Virus genome (UHGV): UHGV-0182470
Direction: 5' to 3' (one strand)
From: a virus
DNA: 36,779 bases
In this document: positions 12,967 to 30,979 of the stretch, piece by piece
How the letters are laid out: each line of letters opens with the position of its first letter
How positions within the stretch are numbered: the stretch's first letter is position 1
Program-made: the position numbers and the translations under genes
The notes under the pieces: model-generated
What the model was told of the DNA's origin: nothing
The model's input: the letters and a program-made list of their open reading frames with translations, nothing else
Database searches by the model: none

Positions 12967-13541
12967 ACCGGGCCTCCGGTTGTGTCGCCGCCTTTCAGGA
13001 CGCCAGTATGCTGATGTGCATCAACCACAATTCCGTTAGAACTCATTGCACCGCCGCCCTGGGTAACACCACCATTGATCACTACTTCGCTGTTAATGCG
13101 TGTGCGGTCAGCCTCCAGTACAAACTCACTGGTTTTCATGGTGATATTGTCGGCGGTCTCAATGACCATTGATTTGATGCCCCTGACATACCAGCGCCCG
13201 GTGGCGGGTTCGTATTCAAACCAGCCGCCGTCAGGATGCTCTGTCACGCAGGCATCCGCCGACGTCGACGGTGGTGCGAACTGATTCGAATAGATGGCGG
13301 GCAGCGCAAACGCGGTTTCAAGATTTCCGCCCAGACTCAGCAGCACCACCTGCTCACCTTCCGATGGTTTCCACCATGTGCGGGCATTCCCGGCACGCAG
13401 CGTCAGCCAGCTGATCCAGTTGGTTTCGAGGTCGCCAGTTTTCACCCGACACAGCCAGTTTGCCCTGTCCACTTCGGTGACTACACCTGTGCGGATCAGG
13501 TTGGTGATAAGGCGCATGATTTCGGTTAATTGTGCGTTCAT
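12963..13541 (-). CDS. V: Baseplate spike/hub protein V
   Basis: 192-aa ORF MNAQLTEIMRLITNLIRTGVV... resembling P2 gpV. Confidence 0.85.
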   Translation of the reverse strand: MNAQLTEIMRLITNLIRTGVVTEVDRANWLCRVKTGDLETNWISWLTLRAGNARTWWKPSEGEQVVLLSLGGNLETAFALPAIYSNQFAPPSTSADACVTEHPDGGWFEYEPATGRWYVRGIKSMVIETADNITMKTSEFVLEADRTRINSEVVINGGVTQGGGAMSSNGIVVDAHQHTGVLKGGDTTGGPV

Positions 13542-13761
13542 AGGGAAAGGTTGCCATCAATAGCAAGCAGTAGACAGCCTTTGTAATTGTATTAGACATA
13601 GAACAAATGCCTTTCAATGGTCTGCGTTAGAGCATTAATACGTTGCAAAAGGTCGAATGACGTTGCGCAAGTTAAGAAGTTCAATGCTCTTAAAAAAGCA
13701 CTTGAAAGCTACGCCTTTAATTATTAAAAGCCAATTAATTTAGGCAGTTACTATGTTATCT

Positions 13762-13793
13762 TTGACACAAAAGATGTTTATTGACAATATATA
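13762..13793 (+). promoter_or_regulatory. Putative sigma70 promoter of the DUF262 cargo gene
   Basis: TTGACA at 13762-13767 followed ~17-18 bp later by AT-rich -10-like hexamer (CAATAT/AATATA); ATG at 13820 with AAGGAG RBS. Confidence 0.35.
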
Positions 13794-13819
13794 AATTCAA
13801 TCTAACAAGGAGAAAAATT

Positions 13820-15595
13820 ATGCCAAATGAAAATCTTGATATTGACTCAAGGACTACCGAGCAATTATACGAATGGTATTTGCAAGGAAATTTGATAGTC
13901 AATAGACGTTATCAAAGGAAACTTGTATGGTCTCTAGAAGAAAAGACTTCTTTAATATCTTCTATGCTGCAACAATATCCTATTCCGTTATTATTATTTG
14001 TTACCATCAATGAACAAAGAGAAATATTGGATGGAATGCAAAGATTAGAAGCAATTATGAGCTTCATCGAACAGAGATTTTCATTAGATGGACAATATTT
14101 TGATTTGGACTCTATAGCTTTAACAAAACAACTTAAAGATAATGGAACTTTAATTCAGAAAGAACCAATCCTTTCCCGTGATTCTTCAGCAATTATTGCA
14201 CGTTATCGATTTGCAATATCAGAATATAGCTCCACAAATGAAAATATTGACGAAGTATTCAGACGAATAAACTCAAACGGGAAGATTTTATCCAAACAAG
14301 AATTACGTAGTGCAGGAACAGTTAGTAACTTCTCTGAACTGGTCAGATCGATATCAACATCGATCAGAGGTGATACTAGCCATTCTGACATTATGAATCT
14401 CCAGCAAATGCACAAAATTTCAATCAGTAACGATAGATTGGAGTACGGGGTAAATATCGATAACCACTTTTATATAAAACATCATATTTTAACAAGACGA
14501 AGTATTCGTGATTCTGATGACGAGGAATTGATAGCCAATATCCTTGCATATATCAGTCTAGAAGAAAAACCCACATCTGGGTCAACTTCTCTCGACACAT
14601 TCTATGGTCAAGGAAACTCCTCTCATGCTCATGGTGTCAGACAGCAATTAGAGTCTTTCATTCAAACCAATAACGCTGCCACTATTAAGCAGAATTTCAT
14701 AGCTGTATATGAATTAATTACAAGCCTATATGACGGAAAAAATGATACTTTTAGAAGCCATATTTTAGGGGAGGATAATTCATCTCAAGAATGCCCTCGT
14801 TATTATCAAGCTGTGTTTTTGTCTATTTATGAACTTCTTTTCAACCAAAATATGCAATTAATTGATAAAGAAGGTTTATTCTCGCAATTAAAAAACACTG
14901 GCAATACCATAATTATGGTTACCGATGGTGGCCGCTGGGCTGCAAGCACTCGTGAAAAAAGTGTTAATGATCTTGTTGCATTAATAAGTCGCTACTTCCA
15001 ACCTGCTCCTCAAAAGTATGTGAATCATGCTTGGGTAACTGAAATTCGCAATCTATTAACAAATTCTAGAACTGAACAACCAAGTTATGATTTCAAACAG
15101 GGGTTCTTTAATTTATCAGGTAAAAATGAATTTGATGATGAATGTTTAAAAGGAATATTACAAACTTGCGTAGCAATAAATAATATTGGAAAAAGCGCAA
15201 AAGGCTATATTTTAGTTGGTATTGCCGAAAATAAATTAACCGCAGATAGAATTCAACATTTATATGGAGTAAATTCAATTGAGTTCAATGGGTTCTATAT
15301 AAACGGAATTGATCATGAAGCAATGTTAGTCTCTGGTAGCATTGATGGTTACTTTATGTTAATAAAACAAAAAATACAAGGATACAATTTCACTGAAACT
15401 CTAAAACAGCAGATACTTAAGAATATTGAGTTTTGCTCTTACAATGGCTTACACATACTCAAGATAACTATTCAGAGCACAGGTCAAATTTGCGACTTTG
15501 AGAATATGTTTTATATCAGACAAGGCTCATCGACTGATCCAGTTACGGATACACAAAAAATCTCAGCCCTATTTAACTCTTACATGAACAGCTAA
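13820..15595 (+). CDS. DUF262 (ParB/GmrS-like N-terminal domain) protein, candidate defence cargo gene
   Basis: 591 aa from ATG 13820 (AAGGAG RBS; ORF track start 13781 is upstream in frame); N-terminal region ...RRYQRKLVWS...ILDGMQRLEAI matches the DGQQR signature region of DUF262; visibly AT-rich relative to flanking phage genes; opposite strand to S and V. Confidence 0.7.
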   Translation: MPNENLDIDSRTTEQLYEWYLQGNLIVNRRYQRKLVWSLEEKTSLISSMLQQYPIPLLLFVTINEQREILDGMQRLEAIMSFIEQRFSLDGQYFDLDSIALTKQLKDNGTLIQKEPILSRDSSAIIARYRFAISEYSSTNENIDEVFRRINSNGKILSKQELRSAGTVSNFSELVRSISTSIRGDTSHSDIMNLQQMHKISISNDRLEYGVNIDNHFYIKHHILTRRSIRDSDDEELIANILAYISLEEKPTSGSTSLDTFYGQGNSSHAHGVRQQLESFIQTNNAATIKQNFIAVYELITSLYDGKNDTFRSHILGEDNSSQECPRYYQAVFLSIYELLFNQNMQLIDKEGLFSQLKNTGNTIIMVTDGGRWAASTREKSVNDLVALISRYFQPAPQKYVNHAWVTEIRNLLTNSRTEQPSYDFKQGFFNLSGKNEFDDECLKGILQTCVAINNIGKSAKGYILVGIAENKLTADRIQHLYGVNSIEFNGFYINGIDHEAMLVSGSIDGYFMLIKQKIQGYNFTETLKQQILKNIEFCSYNGLHILKITIQSTGQICDFENMFYIRQGSSTDPVTDTQKISALFNSYMNS

Positions 15596-15638
15596 TCAAT
15601 CGCCATCTCCACAGGAGCTGGCTTATGGATAAAAACAA

Positions 15639-15672
15639 AAGACGAGAGGGTTATTTAAACCTCCTCGTCTTT
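15639..15672. terminator. Bidirectional rho-independent terminator between DUF262 gene and S
   Basis: AAGACGAGAGGG ... CCTCCTCGTCTT hairpin flanked by A-tract upstream and TTATTTTG downstream. Confidence 0.6.
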
Positions 15673-16117
15673 ATTTTGATAGCTCCTCCTTTATGCTCAT
15701 AATAATATTTTCTTCTGTTTTATAAGATAAGCCCAATAAAGTACGTTGCGGATATTTCGCGATTAAACCTTTTTTATTTACGCGATCACGCAGACCGTAA
15801 TGGTGAACACGGGCAATGCGCTGTACCTTACCTTCAAACTGTACGCTGGCAGAATCGGCGCTGGCGGCAGTTTTCAGGTATTTTGTGGTGCGCAGCTTTG
15901 CAAACATCTGACGTTTGATACGCCCCTTTTTACTGCGTGCTGTTACCCGTCGCGGTTCATAACTACTGCCATCTGGATTGCGCTGCATCCTGATGTTCTT
16001 CTGTTGTGTCCTGCGCAGTTCCTGCGCCAGTTGGCGCATCATGCGGCTTCTTGCGGCTGGTTCCAGATTCGCCAGCAAGGCACTCAGCCAGTCGTCAACT
16101 TTCTGCAGTTCAGCCAC
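15671..16117 (-). CDS. S: Tail completion protein S
   Basis: 148-aa ORF, position after R; P2 gpS-like. Confidence 0.85.
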   Translation of the reverse strand: MAELQKVDDWLSALLANLEPAARSRMMRQLAQELRRTQQKNIRMQRNPDGSSYEPRRVTARSKKGRIKRQMFAKLRTTKYLKTAASADSASVQFEGKVQRIARVHHYGLRDRVNKKGLIAKYPQRTLLGLSYKTEENIIMSIKEELSK

Positions 16118-21244: not shown

Positions 21245-23011
21245 ATGAACACCACACTGACACCCGCAGATCTCGATCCCCGTCGGCAGGCCATGCTGCT
21301 GTACTTTCAGGGATACCGCGTAGCCCGCATTGCTGAAATGCTGGGCGAGAAAGTTGCAACCGTTCACAGCTGGAAAAAACGCGACAAGTGGGGTGACTAT
21401 GGGCCGCTGGATCAGATGCAGCTCACCACCGCCGCACGCTACTGCCAGCTCATTATGAAGGAGCACAAAGAAGGGAAAGATTTCAAAGAGATTGACCTGC
21501 TGGCGCGCCAGTCTGAGCGCCACGCGCGGATCGGCAAGTTTAACAATGGCGGCAACGAAGCCGACTTAAACCCTAACGTCGCCAACCGCAACAAAGGCCC
21601 GCGCCGTCAGCCGGAAAAGAATGTCTTCACCGATGAACAGATTGAGAAGCTGGAAGAAATCTTCCATTCCTCCATGTTCAACTACCAGCGCCACTGGTGG
21701 GAAGCCGGAAAAACCAACCGCATCCGCAACCTGCTGAAGTCACGCCAGATCGGCGCAACCTTTTACTTTGCCCGTGAAGCCCTGATTGACGCCCTGCTTA
21801 CCGGGCGTAACCAGATTTTCCTTTCCGCCAGTAAGGCACAGGCCCACGTCTTTAAGCAGTACATCATCGACTTCGCCAAAGAAGTCGAAGTGGAGCTGAA
21901 AGGCGATCCGATGGTGCTTCCTAACGGGGCCACGCTTTACTTCCTAGGCACCAATGCCCGCACGGCCCAGAGTTACCACGGCAACCTGTATCTGGATGAA
22001 TATTTCTGGATCCCGAAATTCCAGGAGCTGCGCAAAGTGGCTTCCGGTATGGCTATTCACAAGAAATGGCGACAGACCTATTTTTCCACGCCATCCAGCC
22101 TGACCCACAGTGCTTATCCGTTCTGGTCCGGTGCGCTGTTCAACCGTGGGCGCAACAAAGCCGACAAGGTGGACATCGACCTGTCCCACAGCAATCTGGC
22201 TCCCGGTCTGCTGTGTGCAGACGGGCAATACCGCCAGATAGTCACCGTGGAAGATGCGGTGCGCGGCGGCTGTAACCTGTTCGACCTTGACCAGTTGCGC
22301 ATGGAATACAGCCCGGACGAATACCAGAACCTACTGATGTGTGAGTTCGTGGACGATCTCGCGTCCGTGTTCCCGCTCAGCGAGCTGCAGGCGTGCATGG
22401 TGGACAGCTGGGAAGTCTGGACCGACTTTCATGCACTGGCCCTGCGCCCGTTTGGCTGGCGCGAGGTGTGGATCGGTTATGACCCGGCAAAAGGTACGCA
22501 GAACGGCGACAGTGCCGGATGCGTAGTGGTGGCTCCGCCAGCCGTGCCTGGCGGTAAGTTCCGCATTCTTGAGCGTCACCAGTGGCGCGGGATGGACTTT
22601 CGCGCCCAGGCTGACGCCATCAAAAAACTGACCGAACAGTACAACGTGACATACATAGGTATCGACTCAACCGGCGTCGGTCACGGGGTTTACGAGAACG
22701 TGAAAGCGTTCTTTCCTGCCGTCCGGGAGTTCGTCTACAACCCCAATGTTAAAAACGCCCTGGTACTCAAGGCCTACGACATTATCAGCCACCGCCGTCT
22801 GGAGTTTGACGCCGGATACACCGACATAGCGCAGTCATTTATGGCAATCCGTCGCGCCACCACCGCCAGCGGCAACCGCCCGACCTATGAAGCCAGCCGC
22901 AGCGAAGAAGCCAGCCATGCTGATCTGGCCTGGGCAACGATGCATGCACTGTTTAACGAACCGCTGCAGGGCGAGTCCGCCAATACCAGCAATATTGTGG
23001 AGATTTTTTGA
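21245..23011 (+). CDS. P: Terminase large (ATPase) subunit P
   Basis: 588-aa ORF divergent from O; P2 gpP-like. Confidence 0.9.
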   Translation: MNTTLTPADLDPRRQAMLLYFQGYRVARIAEMLGEKVATVHSWKKRDKWGDYGPLDQMQLTTAARYCQLIMKEHKEGKDFKEIDLLARQSERHARIGKFNNGGNEADLNPNVANRNKGPRRQPEKNVFTDEQIEKLEEIFHSSMFNYQRHWWEAGKTNRIRNLLKSRQIGATFYFAREALIDALLTGRNQIFLSASKAQAHVFKQYIIDFAKEVEVELKGDPMVLPNGATLYFLGTNARTAQSYHGNLYLDEYFWIPKFQELRKVASGMAIHKKWRQTYFSTPSSLTHSAYPFWSGALFNRGRNKADKVDIDLSHSNLAPGLLCADGQYRQIVTVEDAVRGGCNLFDLDQLRMEYSPDEYQNLLMCEFVDDLASVFPLSELQACMVDSWEVWTDFHALALRPFGWREVWIGYDPAKGTQNGDSAGCVVVAPPAVPGGKFRILERHQWRGMDFRAQADAIKKLTEQYNVTYIGIDSTGVGHGVYENVKAFFPAVREFVYNPNVKNALVLKAYDIISHRRLEFDAGYTDIAQSFMAIRRATTASGNRPTYEASRSEEASHADLAWATMHALFNEPLQGESANTSNIVEIF

Positions 23012-24039
23012 TGGGAAAGAGTAAGAAAAACCGCGCTGCGGCGACGAAACAGCTCCAGCTTAAAAACCAGACTACAGCCGAAGCATTCAGCTTCGGCGAT
23101 CCCGTTCCTGTTCTGGACCGCCGAGAACTGCTGGACTATGTGGAATGCGTACAGATGGACCGTTGGTATGAGCCGCCCGTCAGCTTTGACGGACTGGCGC
23201 GCACCTTCCGCGCTGCCGTGCATCACAGTTCCCCGATTGCAGTAAAGTGCAACATTCTGACCAGTACCTATATCCCTCATCCGCTGCTCAGCCAGCAGGC
23301 TTTTTCGCGTTTTGTGCAGGACTATCTGGTATTTGGTAACGCCTACCTGGAGAAACGCACGAACCGATTCGGTGAAGTTATCGCTCTTGAGCCTGCGCTG
23401 GCAAAATACACCCGACGCGGATTAGACCTGGATACCTACTGGTTTGTGCAATACGGTATGACAACCCAGCCGTATCAGTTCACGAAAGGCAGCATTTTTC
23501 ATCTGATGGAACCGGATATTAATCAGGAGATCTACGGCCTGCCCGGTTATCTTTCTGCCATTCCGTCAGCCCTGCTCAACGAGTCCGCCACGCTGTTCCG
23601 CCGGAAGTATTACATTAACGGTAGTCATGCAGGCTTCATCATGTACATGACCGATGCCGCGCAGAACCAGGAGGATGTGAACAACCTCCGCAACGCGATG
23701 AAAAGTGCCAAAGGTCCGGGTAACTTCCGCAACCTGTTTATGTACTCGCCTAACGGCAAAAAAGACGGGCTTCAGATTATCCCGCTATCAGAAGTCGCAG
23801 CGAAGGATGAATTTCTTAACATCAAGAACGTGAGTCGGGATGACATGATGGCAGCGCATCGTGTGCCACCACAAATGATGGGGATAATGCCTAGCAATGT
23901 TGGGGGGTTTGGGGATGTGGAGAAGGCGGCAAATGTGTTTGTGCGAAATGAATTATTACCGTTGCAAAAAAGGATGCGTGAAGTAAATGACTGGTTAGAA
24001 CAAAAAATTTTGCGATTTGAGCCATATTCTTTGGGATGA
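23008..24039 (+). CDS. Q: Portal protein Q
   Basis: 343-aa ORF coupled to P (ATGA overlap). Confidence 0.9.
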   Translation: MMGKSKKNRAAATKQLQLKNQTTAEAFSFGDPVPVLDRRELLDYVECVQMDRWYEPPVSFDGLARTFRAAVHHSSPIAVKCNILTSTYIPHPLLSQQAFSRFVQDYLVFGNAYLEKRTNRFGEVIALEPALAKYTRRGLDLDTYWFVQYGMTTQPYQFTKGSIFHLMEPDINQEIYGLPGYLSAIPSALLNESATLFRRKYYINGSHAGFIMYMTDAAQNQEDVNNLRNAMKSAKGPGNFRNLFMYSPNGKKDGLQIIPLSEVAAKDEFLNIKNVSRDDMMAAHRVPPQMMGIMPSNVGGFGDVEKAANVFVRNELLPLQKRMREVNDWLEQKILRFEPYSLG

Positions 24040-24096
24040 TTTCTCTTGTAAATCAACATGCTTTGCTGTTCGATAGAACAAACCAAAATTTGATTA

Positions 24097-24557
24097 GTGG
24101 GAAAAGTTCATGGTACAGCAAGTATGGTTTTTTTTAAGGCAATTGAGAAAGACGATCTTAGATACTGGGGAAATGATAGTTATCCCGATGACTCATCAGT
24201 TTTCTATCGCTATGACAGTTTTGTAGCGAATCACAAAAATGTAAAAGACGGTGATATTATTATTATTACCAACAGAGAAAATATTTTAGGTATATCTGTT
24301 ATTGAAAAATTAGAAACACAGAGCATTAATAAGAAGCGTAACAAATGTATTAACCTAGACTGCAAAGCAAAAAAATTCTTCAAAGGAAAACTATAAAATC
24401 AGAGTGGCGTTGTGATAATGGCCATGAATTTGATGAACCCAGAGTGGTTTTTGAGCCAGCTAAAGAATTTATAGCATACTGCGGCAACCAGTACCGTAAA
24501 TTATCCAATATTACAATGTCACAACTTATAGATGAAACTCCACGCTACAATGGGTAA
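24097..24557 (+). pseudogene. Zinc-ribbon-containing ORF split by a frameshift in an A7 tract (24097-24396 in frame 0, continuing to 24557 in frame +2)
   Basis: Frame-0 ORF ends ...KCINLDCKAKKFFKGKL; the same region in frame +2 reads ...KKILQRKTIKSEWRCDNGHEFDEP...YCGNQY... One extra A in the A7 run at ~24370-24376 would join them into one ~153-aa protein with a Cys/His zinc-ribbon-like pattern. Confidence 0.45.
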
Positions 24558-25070
24558 ATGTCCATCCAAGAAGTTAACTATCAATGGGCTGTTGCTTTGC
24601 TTACCGCCCAACATACTATTATTCTGGAGCTCAACGCCAGCGAAGCTGATAAAGACACCCCCACTTTAATGGGTGAAGATCAACGGCAAATTGTAGAACG
24701 GCAAATAAAACAACGAAGTGGGCAAAAAACATTTCGCGACCAGCTATTAAAATCAAATCCTACTTGTGCGGTTACGGGCTGTAAGCTTGTTGATATTCTT
24801 GATGCTGCTCACATTAATGTATATCGAAACGATAGTCACAATCATATTAGCAATGGATTATTGCTCAGAAGTGACATTCATACTTTATATGACCTAAATC
24901 TTTGTGCTATAAACCCGATAACAAAAACCATTCATTTTTCAGTGGAAGCCTTGGAAAATGGATATTCGAAATTCGAAGGTTTAAAAATAAATACCCAACA
25001 CAACATAGCAATAAAACCACTATTAACAAGATGGCAGTTATTAAAATCTCAAAACTCTATTGATATATAA
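24558..25070 (+). CDS. HNH endonuclease-domain protein
   Basis: 170 aa; motifs RSGQKTFRDQLL...CAVTGC...LDAAHI...NGLLLRSDIHTLYD fit the HNH (restriction-type) signature; ATG abuts the TAA of the upstream ORF (TAAATG); AT-rich. Confidence 0.7.
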   Translation: MSIQEVNYQWAVALLTAQHTIILELNASEADKDTPTLMGEDQRQIVERQIKQRSGQKTFRDQLLKSNPTCAVTGCKLVDILDAAHINVYRNDSHNHISNGLLLRSDIHTLYDLNLCAINPITKTIHFSVEALENGYSKFEGLKINTQHNIAIKPLLTRWQLLKSQNSIDI

Positions 25071-25085
25071 TAAATAGCGACAACC

Positions 25086-25117
25086 GAAGGGAGCGTTTAT
25101 AATTAAAAGCTCCCTTT
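25086..25117. terminator. Bidirectional hairpin terminator between convergent cargo genes
   Basis: GAAGGGAGC ... GCTCCCTTT stem flanked by A/T-rich sequence. Confidence 0.5.
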
Positions 25118-25126
25118 AGCAGGAAA

Positions 25127-26155
25127 TTAGAGCACTAGGGGATCAGTGACCCATGCTTTATTATGGTTTTCTCGATAACAATCATAAATTAATAAATCCG
25201 TTCTTGTATCCGGTGGAAGTTCAATTTCAGGAATGTAATAACTTGCTGGATTGCTATTATCTAATGAAATTGAAAAGTTTTGATTAACGATCGTTGATAG
25301 AGACGTATTGGCTTCCAATAAGCTAAACGGGCCATATTTTACACAGTACATTACAACACAAGCAGCAACTGCATCCATTACATTTTCTAAAGTGGAAAAG
25401 TGGAATGCTCCTGATCTATCATGTTTAGTTTTATTATATGCATTATACCATGACAAAGATGTTGTAGGGGTACTTGCATTCCACCCATCAAAAGGTTTGA
25501 AATGCCTTAATCCGTCATAATTCAAATATTGAATTTTATATTCAGACAAATAACACTTATCTAATAATTTCACATAATCATTTGTGGAGTATCGACCATT
25601 TGAACGAGATAAATTCGAATTACCAATGATTGACACCCATTGATTTTCAACCTCAGTACAAGCAAGAATTAATAGCTCTCTACATTTATGACTGTAAGAA
25701 ATCAAACCATGGGCACTTGGTTCTACATATAGAAAAATATCATCGAGTTTTTCTATCAAAACTCTTAGAGCTTGCTCTGTTGCTCTTTTTTCAAACTCAT
25801 CGATACCTAATGCTGTTTCTGTATCATTGACATAATATAAGGATGGCCGCCACACTCCCCTAGTTACATGTCCAATTTCATTATCTAAAGGAGATATGTT
25901 CTGAGCCCCAAATACTCTCCGAACCCAATCATTGAGAGTTCCACTTCGTTGCTCAATAACAGTTAACCCAACTGATATTACATTAAATCCCACGTCACGC
26001 CCATACAGATGCACAAAATGACTTGTTGTTTCATAAGCGTAACCGAATTTGTGCTTTTGATGTACTGTTGTTTCAAAATTAGGAATGCGTGTATGAGTGT
26101 TTTCGTACCAGATTCCGTTCATCATCACCTCTAATGAGAGTCGATTATATTTCAA
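25127..26155 (-). CDS. Hypothetical 342-aa AT-rich cargo protein
   Basis: Long uninterrupted ORF on the minus strand in an AT-rich island between Q and the putative cos site; no confident family assignment (contains an RSGAFH, i.e. R-x4-H, motif). Confidence 0.6.
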   Translation of the reverse strand: MKYNRLSLEVMMNGIWYENTHTRIPNFETTVHQKHKFGYAYETTSHFVHLYGRDVGFNVISVGLTVIEQRSGTLNDWVRRVFGAQNISPLDNEIGHVTRGVWRPSLYYVNDTETALGIDEFEKRATEQALRVLIEKLDDIFLYVEPSAHGLISYSHKCRELLILACTEVENQWVSIIGNSNLSRSNGRYSTNDYVKLLDKCYLSEYKIQYLNYDGLRHFKPFDGWNASTPTTSLSWYNAYNKTKHDRSGAFHFSTLENVMDAVAACVVMYCVKYGPFSLLEANTSLSTIVNQNFSISLDNSNPASYYIPEIELPPDTRTDLLIYDCYRENHNKAWVTDPLVL

Positions 26156-26233
26156 TGGATTATATGGATGATACTACACTAAGTTGTACCTATGACAGAT
26201 ACTATTTTAGCCACTTCAGGCATACAGCGCGCG

Positions 26234-26252
26234 CTCGTATCCCCGCCACGCC
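26234..26252. other. Putative cos cohesive-end site (P2/186-like)
   Basis: Reverse complement reads GGCGTGGCGGGGATACGAG; first 13 nt match the 186 cos sequence GGCGTGGCGGGGA as I recall it; GC-rich island in AT-rich surroundings. Confidence 0.4.
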
Positions 26253-26583
26253 TGCTCGCTTTATGTAGTGGTTTTCATGCACCTGCATGACATGAGTAAA
26301 AGCCCGCCAGTTCTGGCAGGTGTCTGCAAAAACGATCCTCAATCGATCATGCGATTTCATGCAGCATAGTCATGCACTGCCAAGGGAAGCGTTAATCCGT
26401 ATCTGATAACCGCTTGAAAAACGAAACATACTGGTTTACAACAATAAAAATCCGCTGTGAGCGAAGAGCAGAAGTTACAGCATAAAAAGCAATATGGTTG
26501 TGTACCATAGAGCTAAACATTTAAACAAGTTATGTGCTGTATCGATATACTGTGACTCAATATCTAAAACATGGAGGGTGAAT

Positions 26584-27057
26584 ATGTCTTCTTCTACATC
26601 ACAACTACAGCATGTTACAACATCGACAACAGTAAACTCGTCAAGTTACTCCCCCGTCAAATTGCAAGATCATGAAGCAGCATCGAATTCTGGACCTGGT
26701 GGACATACAATTAGAAGACATGTTGGCAAGGATGCCAATTACCTGATAGATCGATTAGATCGATTTCCTAAACTCTGTGTAGCTTCAACATTTACAAACT
26801 TATCAGTAGCAGAACTATCAGCTACCGAGTGGTTCAATTCATTTCTTATGGAATTTACAGAGTGGTATAAAGATCCTAATCGCACAGAGGTTAGATTTTC
26901 AAAGGAATTAGACATTGAACAGGATGTAGGCACTTACGTTAAACGCGATAATCCAAACAATATATTGACTGCAAAAAGAATTAATTTAGTCATGAAAATT
27001 GAAAAGTTTAACGGAATGCCTCATTTCATCCTCACTGCATATCCTGTTAAGGGGTGA
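26584..27057 (+). CDS. Hypothetical protein, toxin-like (Ser/Thr-rich N-terminal linker + compact C-terminal domain)
   Basis: ATG 26584 with GGAGGG RBS (track ORF starts upstream at 26494); 158 aa; motif GGHTIRRHVGK; translationally coupled to the next gene. Confidence 0.6.
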   Translation: MSSSTSQLQHVTTSTTVNSSSYSPVKLQDHEAASNSGPGGHTIRRHVGKDANYLIDRLDRFPKLCVASTFTNLSVAELSATEWFNSFLMEFTEWYKDPNRTEVRFSKELDIEQDVGTYVKRDNPNNILTAKRINLVMKIEKFNGMPHFILTAYPVKG

Positions 27058-27061
27058 TAAT

Positions 27062-27721
27062 ATGTCAAAAGAATATACTAAACTAGATAATTTTATACGG
27101 TCCTACTTCAATCAAGATACCGTATGCGAACTTGAGTCAGATGATCTTGGAAAGATTATTGATTTATATCTTTCTGATGTTGGTCAGAATGGCGTAAAAG
27201 AACTTCTAATTGATATTTCAAAGTTTATTAATGATAATAAAAATCAAAGCCTTGATAAATATTTTGAGAATAAGTTCAGCTCTTATCTTGACATAACTCC
27301 AGTTGAAAAATTCATCTCACTCTTGAATTCAAAATATCTCGAAAAATATCCTGAGATAAAATCCACTGCCGTGAAACATTTTGTATTTTCTACTACACCA
27401 AAGAGAACACAGCATAAACCAAGAATAATTAAAAGATTTCCTTCAATGGTTCCAGCACTTAGTTTTGAGTTTTCATCAGAACGAATCGCTGATTCCAATG
27501 CTTTGTTTCGAGGAAAAGTTTTTAAGCGTAACAACATTAAGCGCGGAGCCAGAAAACCATATTATATACTGGTAAACATCAAACCAAAACAAGAGGCGGC
27601 TATAAAGGTTTCTTTATCTAAGAGTAAGAGTCGTCAACGTCTTTACGATTCACTTAAAAAATCCATTGAAGCTACAGATATTGTTTTGCAAAATAATAAA
27701 GTCGAAAAAATGAAATCATAA
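27062..27721 (+). CDS. Hypothetical protein, immunity/partner-like, basic C-terminus
   Basis: ATG 27062 with AAGGGG RBS, 4 nt after stop of upstream gene; 220 aa; Lys/Arg-rich C-terminal third. Confidence 0.6.
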   Translation: MSKEYTKLDNFIRSYFNQDTVCELESDDLGKIIDLYLSDVGQNGVKELLIDISKFINDNKNQSLDKYFENKFSSYLDITPVEKFISLLNSKYLEKYPEIKSTAVKHFVFSTTPKRTQHKPRIIKRFPSMVPALSFEFSSERIADSNALFRGKVFKRNNIKRGARKPYYILVNIKPKQEAAIKVSLSKSKSRQRLYDSLKKSIEATDIVLQNNKVEKMKS

Positions 27722-27730
27722 CGTGAAGAA

Positions 27731-27757
27731 AATAGCCACTCCTAGTGGCTATCTTTA
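27731..27757 (+). terminator. Rho-independent terminator after the two-gene module
   Basis: ATAGCCACT / AGTGGCTAT perfect 9-bp stem, 3-nt loop, followed by CTTTAATT. Confidence 0.6.
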
Positions 27758-27941
27758 ATTGTTATCCCAAAACCATCTCCTAGGGAGGTGGTGATTGATT
27801 TATAAGATAGTTAAAACCAAAAACATTTGACAGTAGTAAAGAGAAAGTTGCGTCCATCAGTTGAAGTCAAAGCATAAAGCGGACGATCACTTATCAAAAT
27901 GGCCGCCCACCTAACTCCTCGTTTCACTCGTGCTAAAACTA

Positions 27942-27971
27942 GCCCCCATCAGAATAAATCCTCCTGGGGGC
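27942..27971 (-). terminator. Rho-independent terminator after dinI-like gene
   Basis: GCCCCC...GGGGGC hairpin immediately downstream (minus strand) of the stop at 27980, followed by a U-rich tract on the minus strand. Confidence 0.5.
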
Positions 27972-27979
27972 AACGTTTC

Positions 27980-28210
27980 TTAATGCAGCCAGCTGTCGTC
28001 TTCCCACACCTTCTGCATAATTTTCATCACTTGTTTTCTTTCTTCGTCCAGTTGCAGTCCGGTCAGTTCCACACCGTTAGAGCTACCTTTGCGGATACGA
28101 ATTACCGTTTTGGGATACAGGGGGCGCAGATTGCGGTAAAGCTCGGATTCAAGGGCGTCCAGTGTAGACTGGCTAACCTTCTGCTCTTTATCGATCATTA
28201 TTTCAATGCG
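27980..28210 (-). CDS. dinI: DinI-family protein (ORF track extends to 28285; start at MRIEIMI)
   Basis: MRIEIMIDKEQKVSQSTLDALESELYRNLRPLYPKTVIRIRKGSSNGVELTG...KIMQKVWEDDSW aligns along its length with E. coli DinI as I recall it. Confidence 0.8.
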   Translation of the reverse strand, partial: RIEIMIDKEQKVSQSTLDALESELYRNLRPLYPKTVIRIRKGSSNGVELTGLQLDEERKQVMKIMQKVWEDDSWLH

Positions 28211-28223
28211 CATAAAAGTCACC

Positions 28224-28412
28224 TCAGCTGATGACATCCATTGAGCGGTTGTATTCGTGGGTTCTGATTTTTGCCATAAGTTCATCTGTCAGTTCAGAAA
28301 CCCACTGCAGGGCCAGCCCCTTCTCTTCATCACTACACTCACTAGCCGCTACAAGCTTAAGAAAAAAATCAATGCGCTGGAGCTTCAAAGACTCCAAAAA
28401 ATAGTCCTGCAT
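28224..28412 (-). CDS. Small acidic hypothetical protein, first gene of LexA-boxed operon (Tum-like antirepressor candidate)
   Basis: 62-aa ORF immediately downstream of a LexA box and upstream of the dinI-like gene; functional assignment is inference only. Confidence 0.4.
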   Translation of the reverse strand: MQDYFLESLKLQRIDFFLKLVAASECSDEEKGLALQWVSELTDELMAKIRTHEYNRSMDVIS

Positions 28413-28454
28413 CTTTCCTCCTATGACACCAAAGCAATACTGTATATATAACCA

Positions 28455-28470
28455 CTGTTTATATTTACAG
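28455..28470. promoter_or_regulatory. LexA (SOS) box
   Basis: CTGTTTATATTTACAG is a perfect CTGT-N8-ACAG palindrome with AT-rich spacer; a second half-site-like CTGTATATATAACCAC lies just upstream. Confidence 0.65.
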
Positions 28471-28564
28471 TATATAATAATCTTACTGATGTAAAACGTT
28501 TTTTTATGCTCATCAGCCTGATATGCCTGGTATTATTAAGAGCACGAATTGTTAACCCGCGTAA

Positions 28565-30979
28565 TTAATACAGGTTTCGCCACTTATCATCTTCCTGCAA
28601 ACGCTGGTTCCGATAGAAGATACGCAGGCCTGCTCCTGATGGAATACTGCCGCCGCGAAGCAGTAAATCGACCTCTTTCTCGCTGCCATCAAATCCCCTG
28701 GACTTCAGTTCATACACGAGCTGCTGTCGCTGATGATCTGTAATTCGCTGTTTGTAGTCTTTACGCCGTTTCGGTTTCACAAGGCGTAACCTTGCTGCCA
28801 GTTCCCGGCGCTCTTTTTTGCTCATACTGTGCAGGTAATCGTGCAACTCCTTGTCATCCATGCGGGTGATATCCGTTCTGGTATCTCCATCAGCTGATTT
28901 GTCTTTCCCTTGTTGGTACAAATTTTCAGCAAGGGGACAGTTATTGCCACGAGTCCAAGGGGCGCAAGCGCCCTGGTCGGCTGCCGCCTCCTGAATGTCA
29001 ACGGCCTTACGAACCATTTTCCACTTCACGGCATGAGTGCAGATCTTGCCCTCTGCAATAGGTGACCAGATGCCATAAATACGAATGCCGTGATCGCCAT
29101 AGGCGGTCGGCTCTTCGTTGATTTCATAAGCAGTTCTGATGAGGTGATATTTGCGGGGAACCAGTACGCCGCCCTGCTTCATGATGTAGGTGGCAAAACA
29201 ACCAGCATCAGCAGCAGCCAGGATTGCATCAAGGCGCGGGTTATCCAGTACCGGCGCACCTGCTTTTTTGTCCCCCTGTTGCCTTGCCGCCTGACCAGCC
29301 AGCAATCGCAGTTCACGGTAAGCCTGACGCCCCGGAATGCCAAAGAAGCGGAATTGCTGAACACGATGCAGAGACGCCCAGGCATTAACGTATTCAGCAT
29401 TATCACGCAGGGATTTCCCCGTTTCCTTGCTGATCTCGCCAGCCAGACCACGCCCGTCAATGTTCTTACTGATGTATTTCGCGATGTAGCTTGTTGGCGT
29501 ACCTTTGCGCGGGTTAATCAACTCAGACTTAAAGCGCGGTCCAGTGTTATTGCCCAGCTCCTCGCGGTCTTCACGGATGGCAAACTTACGCAGTAATGCA
29601 GTGATGGCGCGGCGGTCTTTTTTGCGCATAAAACACAACAGGTGCCAGTGAACTGTACCGTCATGATGCGGCTCAGCCACCCGCACGCCATACCAGCGCA
29701 ATCCGGCTTTGTGCATCGCCTTACGAAATGCAGCAAACATGCCGACCAGATAATCACTACTTTGTCTTACCGTCGCATTTGTCCAGGTTGGGTTGGGCCT
29801 GCCGTTATTTAGCGTGGAATGGAAACGTGACGGACAGGTGATGGTGTAGAAAACGGCGCAGTCACCGCGCATTTCCGCGATAAGCTCCAGACCTTTAACA
29901 CAGGCCATCATCTCATTGCGGCGATGCGCAGGGTTGCTGCTGCTGGCGTTTACCACATCCTCCATGTCCAGCGTGTCGCCGTCTTCGTTCACCAGTTCAT
30001 GAGAACGGAAAAACTCCAGCGACTTACGGCGCTGCTCACGTTTATGCATCACGGCTTCATAGCTGACATAAGGAGATGCTTTTTTGCTAACCAGGCAGAC
30101 AGCGCGCAACTGCTCTTCCCGCCATTCGCAACGCATCTTCCATAATTTCCGATACCACCAGTCAGCGCACAACATACGCGCCAGCGAACCCGGAATGAGT
30201 TCATAGGGCACGGGTTTACGGCGGTTTCTTTTCCGGCGGAGTTGCTCAAACGCAGGCGGGATGACATCCAGACGCAGGGTTTCCGCTGCCACCTTTTCCC
30301 ATGTATTGCGGATTTCTTCTGGCTTAACGTCATCGGTGACATACAAATCGCCACAAGCTGCATCAAGGCACATGCTCATATGCGCAGCGACAAGGGTAGA
30401 CAAGCGTTTCACCTGATCCTGACTCATTTCAGGCAGGATCAGCAGGCCGTCCAGCCCTTCATGGCTTGCCATAAAGCGAAAAGAAGTGGATAGCTGACTG
30501 TCGCGTACATGCTCCAGTCGTTCCAGACATGGCTTAATCGTCTCACGCAAATAGCGGGAATAAGCCTTTGGCCTGCCCAGGCTGCTGAAGTATTCAATAC
30601 GTTGCATCAGCGGCTTGCTGATATGGGAAGGCTGGGCATTGACGTCCGCCAGAATGACCATGTCCGGGTTAAAACGCTGCTGCTCATGCGCCAGCTTTGC
30701 CCGACTAATGAGCTTATCCTGCTCCATTTCGCGCTGGACAGGATCACGGGATTCATTAAAGAAATAACGCTCCCAGACCTGATCACTCAGCGCCTCACGG
30801 CGCAGCTGTTCCTGCTCGTTATCGGCAGCGTACAGAGTGATCAGATTTGAAAGCGCAGAAACCGGCGCAACTTCCGCCGGGTCCAGATAAGGGTTAATGG
30901 CCTTTTTCGGGCTGTTCCATGAGAATGCTGCGGCGACCTCGTTAAAGCCGCTGCAGTTGTTCATATCAGCATGGCTCAT
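28565..30979 (-). CDS. A: Replication initiation endonuclease A (rolling-circle type)
   Basis: 804-aa ORF; size, position and sequence character match P2/186 gpA. Confidence 0.85.

Follow-up and report, generated by a model that had tools for sequence, protein, structure and literature searches.

A conserved orphan gene beside cos in a P2-like prophage of Escherichia coli encodes a protein with a predicted HEPN-like core

The sequence considered here (36,779 nt, virus genome UHGV-0182470, the whole of which is referred to as the window) contains a minus-strand open reading frame at 25127..26155, with a TTG start and a length of 342 aa. The question that it raises is what this frame, here called the orphan gene, encodes, and why a P2-like prophage should carry it. 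An initial annotation, made from the sequence by itself, described a long minus-strand frame within an AT-rich island between the portal gene Q and cos. This description is borne out: the frame is present, and its GC content is 35.3%, compared with 54.5% for P and Q together and about 54% for the core genes.

Genomic setting

The window is a P2-like prophage of E. coli. Ten complete E. coli chromosomes match its region 24000-28600 at 99.9% identity. In these chromosomes the annotated genes follow the order terminase, portal, hypothetical/HNH, hypothetical, RNase A-like, CdiI-type immunity, DinI-like and replication endonuclease. The positions of the main features are collected in Table 1. The cos 19-mer has the same sequence as the 'putative cos site' annotated in Salmonella phage SEN8, an isolated temperate phage of the Peduoviridae, in which the homologue of the orphan gene is gp01, the first gene after cos.

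Table 1 Positions and properties of features in the window. Residues are numbered on the 332-aa form of the orphan protein.
Feature	Position	Strand	Remarks
Terminase P	21245-23011
Portal Q	23008-24039
AT-rich island	24040 to about 28500		GC 36.9%
HNH_2 endonuclease gene, inactivated	24097..25070	+	Frameshift 24368, nonsense 24555-24557; context, not functional partner
Intergenic hairpin	25086..25117	.	dG -16.6 / -16.8 kcal/mol on the two strands, z about -3.6
Orphan coding sequence (331 aa)	25127..26122	-	MNGI starts, dN/dS, PHROG 19461
HEPN-like helical core, residues 99-270	25316..25831	-	Predicted structure
R237-S-G-A-F-H242, residues 237-242	25400..25417	-	Arg conserved, His not
Motif W226-Y227-x-A-Y230-N231-x-x-K234-H235-x-R237, end of helix 3	25415..25450	-	Candidate active site
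Helix-2 motif H146-K-x-R149-E-L-L-I-L-A-C-T-E158-V-E160	25646..25690	-	Conservation
N-terminal beta-rich domain, residues 1-98	25832..26125	-
Putative expression signals	26126..26149	-	TATAAT 26149-26144; GAGGTG Shine-Dalgarno 26131-26126
cos cohesive-end 19-mer GGCGTGGCGGGGATACGAG	26252-26234		112 bp upstream of the orphan start codon
Replication gene A	28565-30979	-

The orphan gene is situated in the gpQ-gpA cos-proximal hotspot, on the Q side of cos. In P2 itself, old and tin are found at this hotspot, and several cassettes cloned from the locus give phage resistance; its cargo is not purely defensive, partition systems and toxins also being mentioned (PMC9122126). The orphan gene resembles the known cargo of the hotspot (old, tin, DUF4238, DprA-PRTase, 3-HP and TIR; PMC9122126) in its locus, in its AT-rich, swappable cassette and in being a short system. 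Unlike the RNase A/CdiI, P-loop NTPase and DarTG cassettes, which are on the A side of cos, it occupies the Q side. Its arrangement appears in Table S5A of Rousset et al. 2022 (PMC9122126), and the term HNH is absent from the table of evaluated systems in the same paper.

The cassette lies by cos between gpQ and gpA and varies between similar prophages, as expected for hotspot cargo. Of the 1,263 E. coli genomes with matching flanks, only 12 have the orphan gene at ≥99% identity. The HNH and orphan cassette is paired with different A-side cassettes: in this prophage with RNase A/CdiI, in E. coli ET665 and FORC_081 with a P-loop NTPase. The two sides of cos (24000-26226 and 26226-28600) behave as separate cargo slots, so that the Q side is swapped independently of the better-known A side. 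In many other genomes the A-side flank carries DarTG or restriction-enzyme plus ASCH cassettes.

The coding sequence and its HNH neighbour

The orphan frame is a real gene under purifying selection. At this AT-rich composition, a frame of 342 codons would stay open by chance with a probability of about 3e-11. Comparison with the SEN8 copy gives a dN/dS of 0.14, and comparison with a 74%-identical copy in E. coli CS18F one of 0.07. The start codon is most likely the ATG at 26122, giving 331 aa, on the basis of the MNGI N-terminus of the homologues, the GAGGTG sequence placed just upstream, and a TATAAT sequence lying downstream of the TTG. The alternative is the ATG at 26125 (332 aa), which is the start annotated by PGAP and the form used here for residue numbering throughout; the TTG at 26155 is unlikely to be the true start. 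The TATAAT hexamer is invariant across six phage copies and has a weak -35. A scan for consensus promoters did not yield a full sigma-70 match on the strand of the gene, and the promoter is therefore only putative.

Downstream, the gene converges tail-to-tail with an HNH_2 frame at 24558-25070 (+). The convergence was recognised in the initial annotation, and stands; the neighbour turns out to be a pseudogene. Relative to SEN8 gp02, which is intact at 319 aa, it has lost one A from a run (A8 to A7) at 24368 and has a CAA to TAA change at the nonsense codon. The HNH gene is also split in other E. coli copies, and is intact in the Salmonella-type and Pseudescherichia copies. Among the E. coli copies in which it has decayed, the orphan gene remains 99.7-100% conserved.

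The hairpin between the two genes had been taken for a terminator. A stable hairpin is certainly there, but it is not among the results of a terminator scan and the sequence behind it has no clean T-run, and hence it is not a canonical intrinsic terminator.

As regards the HNH protein itself, the intact form comprises an N-terminal domain, a segment rich in Cys (C-x4-C ... C-x3-H) that may be a zinc ribbon, and a C-terminal HNH domain. It gives weak matches to a model for phosphorothioate-DNA-dependent restriction endonucleases and to PADLOC models for HNH and type II restriction enzymes, and on these grounds it may once have been a modification-dependent restriction enzyme.

Family and distribution

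The only named-database match is PHROG 19461 (E=1.9e-222, residues 12-342 of the 342-aa frame against profile positions 1-331). This family is annotated as 'unknown function', and membership is therefore uninformative on function. Pfam, NCBIfam and PADLOC give no match for the orphan protein, nor for the sets of 34, 10 and 42 relatives that were searched likewise; the set of ten comprises more distant family members, in which no Pfam domain is found. A sequence search of the PDB with two profiles returned nothing meaningful. As to individual abortive-infection families, Abi_2 (PF07751) has no match in the window protein, in the 34 alignment members or in the 10 distant relatives, and for AbiV, AbiD and Abi_2 (AbiD/AbiF) the sole PADLOC or Pfam match is to AbiD, at E=0.022, in one distant relative. 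The initial annotation had considered an R-x4-H motif of the protein compatible with HEPN/Abi-type RNases, though far from diagnostic of them. Membership in any Pfam or PADLOC family of HEPN or Abi type is unsupported by these searches.

The same annotation named no homology, which is correct for named families only, because homologues are numerous. A word-index search found 811 of them at 48-93% identity, nearly all 330-333 aa long and called hypothetical, in Enterobacterales, Vibrio, Acinetobacter, Bacteroidota, Verrucomicrobiota and others. When 1.84 billion representatives were searched with a profile, 2,605 clusters matched at E<=0.001, and 677 of these at E<=1e-30. A genome scan added relatives in Planctomycetota, Bacillota, Cyanobacteria, Spirochaetes, Alphaproteobacteria, Actinobacteria, candidate phyla radiation bacteria and more. 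The length of about 331 aa is kept across phyla. Within a species the gene is rare, being present in 16 of 5,426 complete E. coli genomes. The family is thus large, unannotated and patchily spread over many phyla.

No paper was found that mentions the accessions or the PHROG identifier, and no experimental test of the family was found in the literature. The sequences AYNKTKH and ELLILACTEVE and two family accessions do not occur in the part of the DefensePredictor supplementary text considered here (PMC13092281). Bandua, Aernus, Toga, Reve, Crouga and Hailong, described in 2026 from P4/P2 hotspots (PMC13586616), were considered as identities for the orphan gene, and none fits.

Predicted structure

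AlphaFold2, run with the 34-sequence alignment, generated a confident model for the whole protein, with a pLDDT of 92.8 and a pTM of 0.91. The model consists of a beta-rich N-terminal domain, a helical core and a C-terminal beta segment. When it was compared with the PDB using Foldseek no match was significant (E>0.3), and the matches that recurred were HEPN toxins. Structure prediction had been recommended as a check in the initial annotation; it yields a HEPN-like core, at these Foldseek values.

HEPN is a fold of metal-independent RNases, such as the HepT toxins, AbiV, Csm6 and Cas13. The HEPN layout is of two alpha-hairpins, with a frequent insert between helices 2 and 3 and a conserved acidic residue on helix 2, often as E-x3-[KR] (Anantharaman et al. 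2013, PMC3710099). In the model, helix 1 covers residues 110-131, helix 2 146-167, helix 3 225-235(243) and helix 4 246-264, with an insert of 57 residues (168-224) between helices 2 and 3. The structure comparison shows a four-helix core of two alpha-hairpins, and both the insert and the conserved acidic residue of helix 2 are found (E160 invariant, E158 in 41 of 42 diverse relatives). A conserved R-x4-6-H at the end of helix 3 is absent: no R..H column pair exceeds 50% anywhere in the alignments. Searches of Pfam, NCBIfam, PADLOC and the PDB with profiles found no similarity to any established HEPN family. On the strength of the predicted model, the central domain is HEPN-like in its fold.

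The N-terminal domain is strongly conserved in close relatives and variable in distant ones, and no known fold was matched to it. We propose that it is a sensor or specificity module.

Two HEPN proteins were tried as relatives using hhalign against the family profile, each as a single sequence, and were rejected: the DUF4145 (Apea-like HEPN) protein encoded beside one family member had a probability of 0.1%, and the E. coli HEPN nuclease WP_000528930 one of 1.4%. The latter alignment paired HKxRELLILACTEVE with HKMRNSVAHFCVQVE. Contrary to the published topology, such a pairing would move R-x4-H to helix 2, where a long unbroken helix begins, and its His would be a Leu; the alignment is therefore attributed to chance.

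Conserved residues and a candidate active site

Conservation was assessed in 34 close relatives and in 42 diverse relatives, the latter having 26-59% identity to the window protein. The residues invariant in all 42 diverse relatives are E160, W215, W226, Y227, Y230, K234 and H235. R149, E158 and N231 are each present in 41 of the 42, and R237 in 39; others at ≥90% are G85, R93, P136, T181, Y184 and a few more. Most of the invariant residues fall within the two motifs listed in Table 1, on helix 2 and at the end of helix 3. The pattern E160-x3-[KR] occurs in 25 of the 42 diverse and 6 of the 34 close relatives, and is absent in the window protein, which has V164.

The initial annotation drew attention to an R-x4-H motif, RSGAFH. 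The motif is present in the window protein, but it is not conserved as a motif. In most sequences the column of H242 contains Ser, Glu, Asn, Asp or other residues, and R237 and H242 occur together in 4 of 34 close and 5 of 42 diverse sequences. The conserved His is H235, two residues before R237. N231 lies at position -4 from H235, as does the Asn of the HEPN motif R-N-x3-H. From the model and the alignment, where residues are mapped onto HEPN by secondary structure and conservation, we infer that the family has N-x3-H at the position of R-N-x3-H, with Tyr replacing Arg.

Departures from the canonical motif have precedents. Some HEPN families keep His without Arg, for example Parep1/8, while AbiV and AF0298 show the converse (PMC3710099). 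Parep1/8 of HEPN-T, compared here by description only, is like the orphan family in that His is kept and Arg lost, with other basic residues proposed as substitutes (PMC3710099). AbiV has lost the His and kept a basic residue, and the orphan family is the opposite. In the HepT/MNT HEPN toxins (PDB 8xdj, 7ae2, 5yep) the motif is R-x4-H-x-Y, whereas in the orphan family it is Y-x4-H-x-R. The orphan protein has no sequence similarity to these toxins and no adjacent MNT nucleotidyltransferase. It is also 2.5 times larger than HepT, having the extra N-terminal domain, the insert and the C-terminal beta segment. DS-11 (CBS+HEPN) and the other systems of one or two genes with a HEPN component that were validated with DefensePredictor (PMC13092281) provide a likeness of another kind, a HEPN nuclease in the E. 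coli accessory genome fused to a regulatory domain, and defence by systems of the DS-11 type depends on the HEPN catalytic residues (PMC13092281). DS-11 has a CBS domain, which the orphan protein lacks.

Genomic contexts of relatives

Outside P2-like phages, the gene occurs without an HNH neighbour in all contexts examined, and these are diverse. In a Pectobacterium ICE the relative adjoins type IV secretion genes, and in a conjugative element it is near an MmeI-type enzyme, a restriction-modification gene. In an Acinetobacter island it lies directly behind a gene for DUF4238, a validated single-gene defence (PMC9122126). In an E. coli island it adjoins a DUF4145 gene, in Mucilaginibacter it is found with AIPR and a methylase, and on a Chryseobacterium plasmid it is beside Gabija-type genes for an AAA-ATPase and a UvrD helicase. 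Another E. coli prophage also carries a family member, and on a Klebsiella IncF plasmid the relative is near umuDC.

It is worth adding that one branch, at 60% identity, recurrently adjoins translesion polymerase genes of the umuDC type or their remnants. In the E. coli TB06052 prophage (locus L011, 5799-6794) the neighbours are a SOS-response-associated peptidase and a DUF4113 fragment, and on the Klebsiella IncF plasmid pE16KP0218-2 (locus L110, 7001-7999) they are umuD and umuC.

Across the 149 ORFs that flank the gene in 52 diverse genomes, the top recurring Pfam family, Phage_integrase, is seen at most four times, and the remainder are a mixture of mobile-element, defence-type and housekeeping genes, many of them housekeeping. 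With no family recurring more than four times, the orphan gene has no conserved partner. The genes upstream of two loci of Bacteroidota type are unrelated to one another. An MNT nucleotidyltransferase antitoxin is absent next to the gene, both among the 149 flanking ORFs and in the window, where cos, 112 bp upstream, and on the downstream side the hairpin with the HNH gene leave no room for one.

Proposed function

The orphan protein can be described as a single-gene candidate of the HEPN type whose motif is non-canonical and whose fused domain is uncharacterised, and it is a plausible candidate for phage defence. As such it is a good and cheap target for experiment, and no surprise for the field. 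We propose a more specific role, which we consider to have an even chance of being correct: that it is a stand-alone HEPN-fold effector, carried as hotspot cargo, which would act as an infection-triggered RNase to exclude competing phages. The suggestion of an abortive-infection or exclusion gene made in the initial annotation fits the hotspot location (PMC9122126), and the role itself is what we infer.

The mechanism would be as follows. The gene would be one of the exchangeable cargo items that occupy the cos-proximal hotspot in a P2-like prophage. The active site of the protein would be formed by E160, with R149 and E158, on helix 2 together with Y230-N231-x-x-K234-H235-x-R237 at the end of helix 3; H235 may serve as general base, and K234, R237 or R149 may stand in for the canonical Arg, at whose position this family has Tyr. 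The N-terminal domain would keep the enzyme inactive and detect an incoming phage. The triggered protein would then cut RNA, leading to growth arrest or death of the cell, and this would exclude competing phages and protect the population of lysogens and the resident prophage. In favour of an effector that acts by itself, the HNH neighbour has decayed while the orphan gene is intact, and relatives are found on P2-like phages, ICE, conjugative plasmids and islands, some of them by defence-type genes.

Other explanations need to be weighed against this one. It is unlikely, in our view, that the protein has a HEPN fold but is not an RNase, being instead a nucleotide or nucleic-acid binder, another enzyme, or an addiction toxin that stabilises the element, with any link to defence absent or indirect. 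The missing canonical Arg and the lack of a sequence link to catalytic HEPN families are compatible with this; HEPN domains without the motif are known as substrate-binding domains (PMC3710099), and the four invariant aromatics (W215, W226, Y227, Y230) would suit base stacking with a ligand. On the other hand, the invariant E160, K234 and H235 and the near-invariant R149, E158, N231 and R237 look catalytic, across relatives at 26-59% identity, and a conserved antitoxin-like neighbour is absent. Distinctly unlikely is a benefit to the mobile element by another route, in which the protein would be a counter-defence factor or an early-expressed helper of establishment and would not defend the host cell. 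Its position as the first gene at the cos end in SEN8 (gp01) could be read in this way, as could the relatives beside conjugation genes in ICE and conjugative plasmids, sites that are also home to anti-defence genes, and the non-defence cargo of the hotspots (partition systems, toxins; PMC9122126). Yet the predicted fold is like that of defence and toxin-antitoxin effectors and toxins and unlike known anti-defence proteins, and some copies of the gene are at chromosomal sites where the ORFs on either side include neither phage nor conjugation genes.

It is highly improbable that the orphan protein and the convergent HNH endonuclease form a two-gene system, for instance a modification-dependent restriction module and its accessory protein. 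The two genes do co-occur in every P2-like copy found (E. coli, Salmonella SEN8, Pseudescherichia), and the combination 'HNH_2 + hypothetical' recurs in Table S5A of PMC9122126, where the hypotheticals were matched by label alone. However, the genes are tail-to-tail and form no operon, the HNH gene is disrupted here and split in other E. coli copies while the orphan gene is conserved, and in the non-P2 contexts the orphan gene has no HNH neighbour. These observations together argue against such a system. Finally, the idea that the frame arose by chance, or is a decaying remnant that has no function, can practically be dismissed. The absence of a full promoter match and the rarity of the gene in E. 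coli could be cited for it, but the low chance probability, the dN/dS values of 0.07-0.14, the length of about 331 aa kept across phyla and the high-confidence model all speak against it, and the conservation data already refute it.

If the orphan protein is an infection-triggered RNase, it would represent a widespread family of single-gene defences to which current annotation tools are blind. A further implication would be that Tyr can replace the hallmark Arg in a working HEPN active site, which would widen the sequence pattern used in searches for such nucleases. More tentatively, and with somewhat less confidence than we have in the role of the orphan protein itself, the family as a whole (at least 2,605 clusters at 50% identity) may form a large superfamily of single-protein immune effectors with a rewired HEPN centre (Y-N-x-x-K-H-x-R plus E160 and R149) and a sensor domain of no known fold. 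The orphan gene would then be a founding, phage-borne member and a new anti-phage system of one gene, missed by Pfam, PADLOC and hotspot screens. If the protein is inactive or unrelated to defence, it is just another conserved hypothetical prophage protein. The gene is easy to test, since it is 1 kb long and self-contained, and present on the inducible phage SEN8.

Other cargo in the prophage

On the A side of cos, the window contains an RNase A-like gene at 26494-27057 (+; PGAP start 26584), encoding a stand-alone CdiA-CT RNase A domain (PF18431, E=6.6e-20). It is followed by a CdiI_2-type immunity gene at 27062-27721 (+; PF18593, E=2.1e-9). PADLOC matches neither protein, and the pair may be a second RNase-based cargo module of the hotspot. 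Between the RNase A gene and cos there are two terminator-like hairpins with T-runs on the minus strand (26303-26320 and 26451-26465), which may stop leftward transcription from the A/DinI side ahead of cos and the orphan gene. The interval 27980-28412 (-), between the cargo island and gene A, holds a DinI-like gene (PF06183, E=1.3e-22) and a 62-aa ORF, and both are kept in most of the P2-like prophages that match the A-side flank.

A second AT-rich island is found at about 13500-15700 (GC 33-37%), within the region of the tail genes. It includes an ORF of 604 aa at 13781-15595 (+), which PADLOC matches to NsnA (E=2.9e-23) and to PD-T4-2_A (E=1.3e-17). On the basis of these matches, it is likely to be a defence gene at the other cargo locus of P2 (Z/fun).
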